In this document: positions 15,453-17,639 of the stretch, in pieces
Layout of the letters: each line of letters starts with the position of its first letter
Numbering within the stretch: position 1 is the first letter of the stretch
Assembly (NCBI GenBank): GCA_951406725.2
Contig: OX597826.1
Span: 27,094,001 to 27,158,000, forward strand
Source of the DNA: Octopus vulgaris
Lineage: Eukaryota
Direction: 5' to 3'
Length of the DNA: 64,000 bases
Translations under genes and position numbers: made by a program
The notes under the pieces: generated by a model
What the model was told of the DNA's origin: nothing
What the model saw: only the letters and a program-made list of their open reading frames with translations
Database searches by the model: none

Positions 15453-15978
15453 TTAATTGACAAAATTGGTAATAAATTTTAAGTAAATGTGAAACTGCAT
15501 GTCGCCATCATATCACGGATTGATTTTTGACTATAAGCAAACGATTGCTTCTGTCTTAAAGACAAAAATCGGAAGTTATAAAGGTAAAGGCTTCAGTCTA
15601 TTAGTTCAAATACATACATACATACATATGTGAATGTATGTGTGTGTGTCTGCGCGCGCGTGTATATATATATGTGTGTGTGTTTGTGTGTAAATATATA
15701 TAAATATGTATATCTATCTATCTATCTATCTATCTATATATATATCTATATATATATATCTATATATATATATCTATATATATATATATGAATACATATA
15801 TATGTAAATATATATGTATATATATATGTATGTATATATATATATATATTCAACAACAATTGAGGAACGGCCTCAAATAGGCCATTCGACCCACTAGAAA
15901 GAGCAGCCAGGACTCAAACCACCAAGTAATAGTAATTCAGAAATTAAAGGAAAATTAAAAAAACATTTACCCTATTCA

Positions 15979-16087
15979 TCTTTAGACAATGCATTGTTTC
16001 GATGTTTTTAATGGCATACCAGCCTAATTAAATTAAATTAAACTTAATTAAGTCGATCTACCAAAGGCCACATCTCATCGGTAAGGA
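15979..16087 (-). ncRNA. Type I hammerhead ribozyme (CCGAUGA core, long helix II), inverted copy
   Basis: Reverse complement of the 16623-16731 motif, with one helix I mismatch (TCCTTA/TAAAGA). Confidence 0.8.
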
Positions 16088-16622
16088 AGCCAGGAGAGAC
16101 AGACATACACGAGGCAGTAGTATCTATGCTCCGGGAATGTCTGCCCAAAAAATTTTCAAAAACTACCGTTATCGCGCCAAACTTATCAGCAGAAAATATA
16201 AACTGCTGATTTAATTTCAGAATTAGTCAGAAAATCATCAATCAATCAGGGTAAATGTTTTTTTTAATTTTCCTTTAATTTCTGAATTACTATTACTTAG
16301 CGGTTTGAGTCCTGGCTGCTCTTTCTAATGGGTCGAATGGCCTATTTGAGGCCGTTCCTCAATTGTTTTTGAATTTATATATATAGTCTCTGACTATTTT
16401 CTCTCTCTCACTAGACCGCTGGTGGCGAAAAAATTTCTATTGAATTTTTTGCTACCCTATATTGATTAATTGATGATTTTCTGACTAATTCTGAAATTAA
16501 ATCAGCAGTTTATATTTGCTGCTGATAAGTTTGGCGCAATTACGGTAGTTTTTGAAAATTTTAGGGCAGACATTCCCGGAGCATAGATACTACTGCCTCG
16601 TGTATGTCTGTCTCTCCTGGCT

Positions 16623-16731
16623 TCTTTACCGATGAGATGTGGCCTTTGGTAGATCGACTTAATTAAGTTTAATTTAATTTAATTAGGCTGGTATGTCATT
16701 AAAAACATCGAAACAATGCATTGTCTAAAGA
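16623..16731 (+). ncRNA. Type I hammerhead ribozyme (CCGAUGA core, long helix II, palindromic helix III)
   Basis: TCTTTA-CCGATGA-GATGT(~64 nt)ACATC-GAAA-CAATGCATTG-TC-TAAAGA. Perfect 6-bp helix I, perfect 5-bp base of helix II, 10-nt palindrome, GUC site (cut predicted after 16725). Confidence 0.85.
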
Positions 16732-17639
16732 TGAATAAGGTAAATGTTTTTTTAATTTTCCTTTAATTTCTGAATTACTATTACTTGGCGGTTTGAGTCC
16801 TGGCTACTCTTTCTAGTGGGTCGAATGGCCTATTTGAGGCAGTTCCTCAATTGTTGTTGAATATATATATATAGTCTCTGACTATTTTTTCTCTCTCACT
16901 AGACCGCTGGTGGCGAAAAAAATTTCTATTGAATTTTTTGCTACCCTATATTGATTAATTATATATATATATATATATATATATATATATATATATATAT
17001 ATATATATATATATATATATATATATATATATATATAGATAGATAGATAGATAGATAGATAGATAGATAGATAGATAGATAGATAGATAGATAGATAGAT
17101 ATAGATATATATATACATACATACATGCATACATATATATTATATATGTGAATATATACTATACAAACACATACTCTTTCATTCTGATTGGATAAAATGC
17201 AACTTAGATCTGAAATACCGACCTGCAAACGATTCTGCTTATTCACCAATCTAATTCACCCTAACCCTAATTTTCCTACACAGGCACAAGAGCAGCAATT
17301 TTTTTTTTATATAGTTGTTGTTAACATATTTTGTCGATTCCTAAATGATAAGTGGCAATATATAAGAAGGTGGATTTTGAAAGCACAAGTTACCGGAGGA
17401 AACAGCGCAAGCTATTATGATCGACGCACTCACGACTCTGCCAGTCCGATGCTGGACAGCAACAACAGTAACAGCAATCACAATAGTACTAACACTAATA
17501 ATAATGATCATGATGAAGAAAATAATAATAATAATAATAATAGTAATAATAATAATGATAATAATAATAATAATAATAATAATAATAATAATAATAATAA
17601 TAATAATAATAATAATAATAATAATAATAATAGTAACTC

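Follow-up and report, generated by a model that had tools for sequence, protein, structure and literature searches.

The genome examined contains a dispersed family of ORF-less repeats, in which each 489-bp unit carries a type I hammerhead motif. One insertion of this family lies in the window (the whole stretch of DNA that was analysed, 64 kb in length), which belongs to contig C13 of the 2.8-Gb assembly that was searched. It is very probably an insertion of an animal non-LTR retrozyme, likely to have been copied into a TA microsatellite by the reverse transcriptase (RT) and GIY-YIG endonuclease of a Penelope-like element (PLE) acting in trans. An earlier note, made from the letters of the window, had called the locus retrozyme-like or similar to the pLTRs of Penelope elements, and this identity is upheld by the dispersal of the family, its tandem units, its covarying hammerhead and its Penelope-type insertion footprint.

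Insertion would begin with the nicking of both strands of (TA)n by the PLE enzyme. One nick would prime at RNA site B and the other at site A, the two cDNAs would run towards the 5' end of the RNA, and they would then be joined head to head. We regard this course of events, with nicks in both strands, priming at A and B and joining of two cDNAs, as probable. A reasonable case can also be made for two sorts of template. Uncut multimers or circles would give arms that run past the ribozyme, and RNAs with a 5' end self-cleaved at u254/255 would give arms that stop within about 25 nt, as may have happened with the + arm of the window at u266. Cleavage would likely need a dimer formed through the palindrome of helix III, or the help of protein, and would be slowed by the C4 core.

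The locus, its repeat family and the ends of insertions

Unit coordinates (u1-489) correspond to 16472-16960 of the window (Table 1), and L-numbers are labels of the genomic loci analysed. From left to right the locus consists of (TA)n, an inverted arm of 400 bp, the 489-bp unit in 1.45 head-to-tail copies and again (TA)n, and alignment confirms the tandem and inverted copies that had been read from the sequence. When the shared TA is counted, the inverted arm runs over 412 bp (16248-15837) and merges into the TA up to u402. The + arm starts 12 nt behind the predicted cut of the hammerhead. There is no stop-to-stop frame of more than 58 codons in the unit, and no RT or GIY-YIG ORF in the unit or in the 64-kb window. 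The GC content of the region is 0.33, within the limit of <45% applied to retrozymes. A target-site duplication was not readable in the right flank of the locus, at 16960-17163.

Table 1. Positions in the window of the features of the insertion; u, unit coordinate.
Feature	Position	Strand	Remarks
Left (TA)n-type microsatellite, insertion target	15694..15849	.	
Inverted arm, u481-489 plus u1 to site A (u~390)	15849..16248	-	97% to full unit
Type I hammerhead of inverted arm	15979..16087	-	core CCGAUGA 16081-16075, C17 at 15985; coordinates mapped from alignment
Head-to-head junction of the arms	16240..16252	.	overlap of 1 nt at 16248
5'-truncated upstream copy, u266-489	16248/16250-16471	+	96% to unit; without hammerhead
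Full ORF-less 489-bp unit	16472..16960	+	
Type I hammerhead of full unit	16623..16731	+	pattern search, covariation
Helix I	16623-16628/16726-16731	+	6 bp
Core CCGAUGA (U4C)	16629-16635	+	
Helix II	16636-16640/16705-16709	+	5 bp; encloses 64-nt stem extension
GAA	16710-16712	+	
Palindromic helix III, ACAATGCATTGT	16713-16724	+	
GUC site	after C16725	+	predicted cut, u254/255
Fixed end A (u389-402)	16860..16873	+	putative first reverse-transcription start; (TA)6 in 489-bp family, sister family without TA tract
Optional Penelope-type 'tail', 87-100 nt	16874..16960	+	ends at fixed end B (u486-489), putative second start
Right (TA)n/(GATA)n microsatellite	16960..17163	.	

The arms at the locus are 96-97% alike, and private changes account for all of the 2.7-3.6% by which the three differ. 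Given this divergence and end branches of about 0.013 for the subfamily of the window in a tree of 104 long pieces, the insertion is judged not to be among the youngest. The youth ascribed to it is therefore only relative; arrays of the sister family are 99-100% identical. The locus is an ordinary, ageing, decaying copy. It has only one hammerhead on each strand and so cannot release a monomer by double cleavage, which removes the expectation of a ~490-nt monomer or circle from this place. The ~400-bp hairpin fared better, since 390 of the first 400 nt of a read-through RNA are predicted to pair, as a hairpin of ~390 bp.

A DNA search of the genome, in which 40 of 2,055 candidates were scored, returned 91 matches at 76-100%, and exact motif patterns gave 139 and 180 matches against 0 for the controls. 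A 22-nt motif held in common with a sister family had 4,258 matches, which in a sample were nearly all from the sister. This sister family is 492 bp long, is alignable over the whole 489-bp unit, has the canonical CUGANGA core and forms head-to-tail arrays of up to 10 units. The dispersal and tandem arrangement put forward for checking were thus both found, and pieces of the unit are also present in contigs of four public runs. Related pieces occur as contigs in two runs presumed to be of RNA, but such contigs carry no information on expression, RNA ends or circles. The 489-bp family appears to be the smaller and older of the two. At least two consecutive complete hammerheads, by a strict pattern, occur in 3 of its 120 insertions versus 9 of 32 in the sister; the family thus has the two consecutive hammerheads by which retrozymes are recognised, and the window locus lacks them.

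Very young 492-bp sister copies are found at L117 (C1:7117094-7121297) and L240 (C1:31731804-31736260), with about 4,000 motif matches for the family. A third related family, at L335:201-745 and L340:2-484, has a CUGA[AC]GA core, the palindrome ACTATGCATAGT and the same A end, and its insertions there adjoin old PLE copies. A hammerhead-bearing repeat class is abundant in this genome. Other repeats of the window include 184-bp dimers of a SINE-like repeat (8923-9282 and 35509-35867), a weak tRNA-like match (51661-51752) and a young repeat at 47268-48100, which is 98% identical over 835 bp to a stretch of L315; a 311-codon frame overlapping the latter has no Pfam match.

After merging, 207 loci gave 152 distinct insertions, 120 from the 489-bp family and 32 from the sister. 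They comprise 73 one-armed, 71 clean two-armed and 8 more complex insertions that were left unclassified. The outer ends of arms fall at two sites, A (u~384-402) and B (u~484-489). One of these terminates 71 of the 73 one-armed insertions, and A is paired with B in 64 of the 71 two-armed ones (45/51 in the 489-bp family, 19/20 in the sister), where at most half would be expected if the ends were chosen independently. The remainder are one A+A pair and six with one other end. TA-rich DNA adjoins 160 of the 207 arm ends. It is the outer end that is the fixed point of an arm, the inner ends being spread over the unit.

The hammerhead and its predicted cut site

The features described for the plus copy, namely the 64-nt extension of helix II, the palindromic helix III and the GUC site with cleavage after 16725, were all found. 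Hammerheads are present on both strands, as had been claimed, with cores at 16629 (+) and 16081-16075 (-). Perfect helices hold for the plus copy only. Helix I of the minus copy, TCCTTA/TAAAGA, has a private C-A mismatch (16085), and the U4C change of the core had gone unmentioned. Searching both strands of the window with a hammerhead pattern yielded three candidates whose stems are intact, among them the plus copy (core 16629); the minus hammerhead was missed because of its helix I mismatch. Counts of a 13-nt core pattern were uninformative, with 140 matches in comparison with 89 for its control. A second candidate type I hammerhead, at 46887-46948 (+), has the canonical CUGAUGA core, helices of 7, 4 and 5 bp and an AUA site; it is unrelated to the 489-bp unit and has relatives in L032 (as an inverted pair), L311 and L009/L037. 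There is a weaker candidate at 46576. Another hammerhead family was met at L308:838-924, L318:1386 and L075:45, with a helix II of 53-54 nt and a palindromic helix III, and is two-armed in L308.

The Rfam hammerhead models, proposed as a check, gave no match at the locus, either at the gathering score or up to E 10, so support for the hammerhead rests on the pattern search and on covariation. Neither RNAfold nor RNAalifold returned the hammerhead as the unconstrained minimum-energy fold; the constrained hammerhead is predicted to cost 2.5 kcal/mol relative to the local minimum and 5.6 relative to that of the whole unit. Folded as a circle, the unit is predicted to be more stable than 40 shuffled sequences (z -4.2).

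Covariation, which had also been named as a check, was found. In 29 diverse rows of both families, 99% of cells were paired, with 29 double changes that none of 500 shuffles equalled; the cells were those of helices I and III and the first pair of helix II, and slid controls reached at most 52% paired. Nineteen rows of the 489-bp family alone gave 98% paired and 11 double changes. These counts come from related sequences and are not independent events. The core has C4 in 71 of 80 hammerheads of the 489-bp family and U4 in 65 of 65 of the sister. Several forms of the stems occur among C4 copies, GATGT/ACATC, GACGT/ACGTC and GGTGT/ACACC in helix II and ACAAT/ATTGT and ACGAT/ATCGT in the helix III palindrome, which indicates that the stems were kept after the core had changed. 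The pattern of substitutions points to a ribozyme fold that is under selection. C4 does not form one clean clade, as the tree needs three label changes, and the U4 copies within the C4 group may represent CpG decay or reversion.

Does the ribozyme still cut? In vitro, U4C strongly lowers hammerhead activity (PMC3088659), and a palindromic helix III indicates cleavage as a dimer (PMC4209133). The inner ends of the arms bear on this question. The count took in 177 arms of pattern-ascertained one- and two-armed insertions, leaving out arms that were best-hit-only, complex or not at A or B; exposure was counted after the ascertaining motif, and the hazard was stratified by length. In the 489-bp family 22 of 128 inner ends lie at u255-280, with 7.7 expected. 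Among all 26-nt windows along the unit, the one that begins at u256 ranks highest, and none of 2,000 simulated scans reached such an extreme. Directly before the cut, at u229-254, there are 6 ends against 7.7 expected. The same test in the sister gave 10/49 against 3.5, which is not significant alone (scan-corrected p 0.12), and both families pooled gave 32/177 against 11.5. Second-pass arms show the excess as well (9/67 vs 3.6), and the inner ends of both arms fall within u250-290 in 10 of 64 pairs, where permutation gives 4.4. Some ends lie at u255-257 (L267, L269, L015) and many at a G-run 11-13 nt further on. The + arm of the window is of the latter kind, so that its start a dozen nucleotides behind the cut (u266 vs u254), remarked on in the earlier note, forms part of a family-wide excess. 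This exposure-corrected count speaks against a distribution of inner ends indifferent to the cut site.

From these ends we lean towards the view that RNA of the family cleaves itself in vivo. Half of the excess at u255-280 lies in the T-rich stretch u268-280, several end calls are noisy, and RT stalling at the folded ribozyme or T-rich end-joining could be the source of the roughly threefold excess. The anole PLE could insert without cleavage, its reads showed no ends at the cut site (PMC11167929), and eight of nine Xenopus retrozyme dimers tested gave no cleavage (10.64898/2026.07.22.740005).

These alternative sources of the ends belong to an opposing explanation, that the ribozyme is a dead relic killed by U4C and that the family spread through read-through multimers. 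Such a history would suit the C4 core and the 143 of 207 arms that run past the ribozyme site, as well as the smaller size and greater age of the 489-bp family and its scarcity of two hammerheads in a row relative to the canonical-core sister. Milder excesses of ends at other hairpins (u181-206 and u430-455, p ~0.025) would also fit with stalling. However, C4 subfamilies have acquired compensatory changes in helices II and III, ends are in excess from the scissile bond onward and not before it, and U4C occurs naturally in a viroid ribozyme that is functional in vivo (PMC3088659, citing the original report). On balance we consider a dead ribozyme rather unlikely.

Probable priming at two fixed ends

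The sister family uses end A although it has no TA tract there, so A is not mere microhomology. The segment between A and B has the signature of a Penelope 'tail'. In vitro, the tail of the anole PLE lies between two RT start sites and the enzyme nicks and extends both strands (PMC11167929), and a partial tandem with an inverted arm in TA targets is standard for PLE insertions (PMC8557442, PMC3846280).

Could the inverted arm instead come from a single cDNA that folds back and primes itself, with no second target primer? Self-priming has been proposed for the inverted junctions of PLEs (PMC3846280). It would agree with the nested arm pairs (34-44 of 64), with the common short overlaps at junctions and with inner ends that lie at most 30 nt apart in 22 of 64 pairs, where permutation gives 11.3. 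Outside u250-290, however, this closeness is not significant (10/40 vs 6.1, p 0.07), and in the 20-30 of 64 pairs that are not nested neither arm can have templated the other. Nor does self-priming give a reason for the end of the second arm to fall at the other fixed site, which it also does in the sister family without TA at A. At the window locus a 6-nt AGGGTA match would serve as primer with a loss of 5 nt. The inverted motif TAGGGTA/TACCCTA noted at this junction is accordingly usable only with 5 nt looped out or lost; the direct overlap is 1 nt, and one of the 64 two-armed insertions has these two inner ends. The plus 3' end and the inner end of the inverted arm do share one ~10-nt window here (u489 and u481), as had been observed, but inner ends in the family are spread. 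Two primers are therefore favoured over one self-primed cDNA, which we think unlikely.

The copying of both arms from one shared template is weakly supported by their variants. Private variants common to all pieces are found at 11 of 63 multi-piece loci of the 489-bp family (19 shared variants versus 170 single ones) and 7 of 27 of the sister, and the window locus has none. The distance from arm to arm is less than that to the nearest other locus in 10 of 28. A footprint of A-to-I editing was not seen: A>G and T>C numbered 2 and 4 among shared variants, and 8 and 20 among single ones.

With two primers, the insertions might be read as a DNA record of a life cycle, in which priming takes place on two strands, circles or multimers are run round by the enzyme, and synthesis falls off at RNAs opened by the ribozyme. 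On this reading U4C would be a retained core that slows the ribozyme without abolishing cleavage in the germline, a tuning that leaves enough circle or multimer to be copied. We put this forward tentatively, and with some doubt. If true, it would amount to in vivo evidence for PLE-type hammerhead cleavage and to a general rule for the inverted arms of PLEs.

Penelope-like elements of the genome and known systems

At least three PLE families with intact RT+GIY-YIG frames of 775-781 aa are present (L102, L309, L311). They are young, their frames carry the Neptune/Nematis-type Cys motif, and in several another long frame (321-538 codons) lies ahead of it. A hammerhead descriptor had no match in the repeats of these three families. 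Two of these families, when examined, have two fixed ends that abut TA and lie 40-46 nt apart, and both two-armed autonomous copies examined (L103, L105) use A+B.

When 143 PLE-bearing loci were searched with a profile built from 65 unit copies, no pLTR homology emerged; this partner search scored 150 of 6,136 and 138 of 17,566 candidates. In this partial sample no sequence homology of the unit to the autonomous PLE families of the genome was found, and the linkage to PLE RT/GIY-YIG ORFs that had been suggested for checking was not seen. Weak AT-rich profile matches occurred at L159 and L332. PLE ORF remnants are present in the flanks of 7 of 152 insertions, and four of these seven neighbours were inspected (L031, L236, L256 and L275/L310), the others being L051, L195 and L252. 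Several candidate partners were rejected: L070, where 57 bp of the sister family is inserted at the TA end of a PLE; L310/L275, L031 and L256, which are separate neighbouring insertions; L335 and L340, where third-family insertions lie beside old PLEs; and L236, which is joined to a decayed PLE relic. The family copy at L236:1706-2051 (-) has its inner end fused to a decayed PLE RT fragment and is at most 78% identical to any other copy.

The copies might, then, be terminal pLTR fragments of an autonomous PLE. They are laid out like PLE insertions (PMC8557442, PMC3846280), kinship to pLTRs has been described for Xenopus retrozymes (10.64898/2026.07.22.740005), and remnants of PLE ORFs do flank a few insertions in a search that covered part of the candidates. 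But the unit is itself repeated head to tail, up to 10 times in the sister, never with an ORF, and the PLE neighbours inspected are separate insertions or a decayed relic; we find such an origin very unlikely. A local tandem or inverted duplication, or an assembly artefact, with a hammerhead-like pattern by chance would accord with the Rfam result and with the trouble that inverted repeats give to assemblies, yet it is hardly credible given that copies are dispersed by the hundred and end at the same fixed sites, that arms differ privately, that the helices covary and that the public contigs contain pieces of the unit; mis-assembly of the window locus in particular is judged unlikely on account of the private differences in its three arms and the same layout at 64 of the 152 insertions.

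Twin priming of L1 elements is another case in which both target strands prime and a 5' inverted arm results. There the second primer anneals at variable internal sites, whereas both outer ends are fixed here.

Non-LTR retrozymes of animals have been described, and an origin from PLEs has been proposed for them (Cervera and de la Pena 2020, PMC7229834; Li, Clavereau, Pollet 2026, 10.64898/2026.07.22.740005). Like the present family they have a non-coding tandem unit of low GC with one type I hammerhead each, and are dispersed as monomers to multimers that coexist with autonomous PLEs. A mollusc example, from mussel, is 350-390 bp long (PMC7229834; 10.64898/2026.07.22.740005). The unit described here is larger, at 489 nt, than the invertebrate retrozymes listed in those papers (170-400 nt), and differs in its 64-nt extension of helix II and in the C4 core of most of the family. 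Its PLE footprint, with two fixed ends, a tail, an inverted arm and TA targets, is not described in the text of those papers. The window locus falls outside the 'active' class of Li et al., which is defined by two consecutive hammerheads. The literature searched did not describe this family or any cephalopod retrozyme, nor did it mention a retrozyme with a CCGAUGA core, an A+B rule or a footprint at the cut site; descriptions may exist in subscription papers, in Repbase or in the supplementary files of the 2026 preprint.

The likeness to EN+ PLEs of the Neptune/Nematis type extends to the partial tandem with a 5'-truncated inverted arm and the TA-microsatellite targets (PMC8557442, PMC3846280), and to the optional tail between two RT starts and the type I hammerhead with a palindromic helix III (PMC11167929, PMC4209133). 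Unlike those elements, the unit has no RT or GIY-YIG ORF, and its tail is 87-100 nt long in contrast to the 30-40 nt in print and the 40-46 nt of the autonomous families of the genome. The U4C hammerhead of a viroid has the same core substitution (PMC3088659); it is an isolated variant there, whereas C4 is here the majority state across subfamilies 10-15% apart.

Mobilization of animal retrozymes by Penelope elements has so far been proposed from co-occurrence and pLTR kinship rather than on mechanistic grounds, and as to the cutting of PLE-type hammerheads in cells, the anole study had no reads at the cut site. The family offers a 489-nt template with two predicted starts, a predicted cut and a natural C4/U4 sister pair. 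Intact PLE ORFs are present in the same genome, and every step would be accessible to the in vitro PLE assay that already exists.
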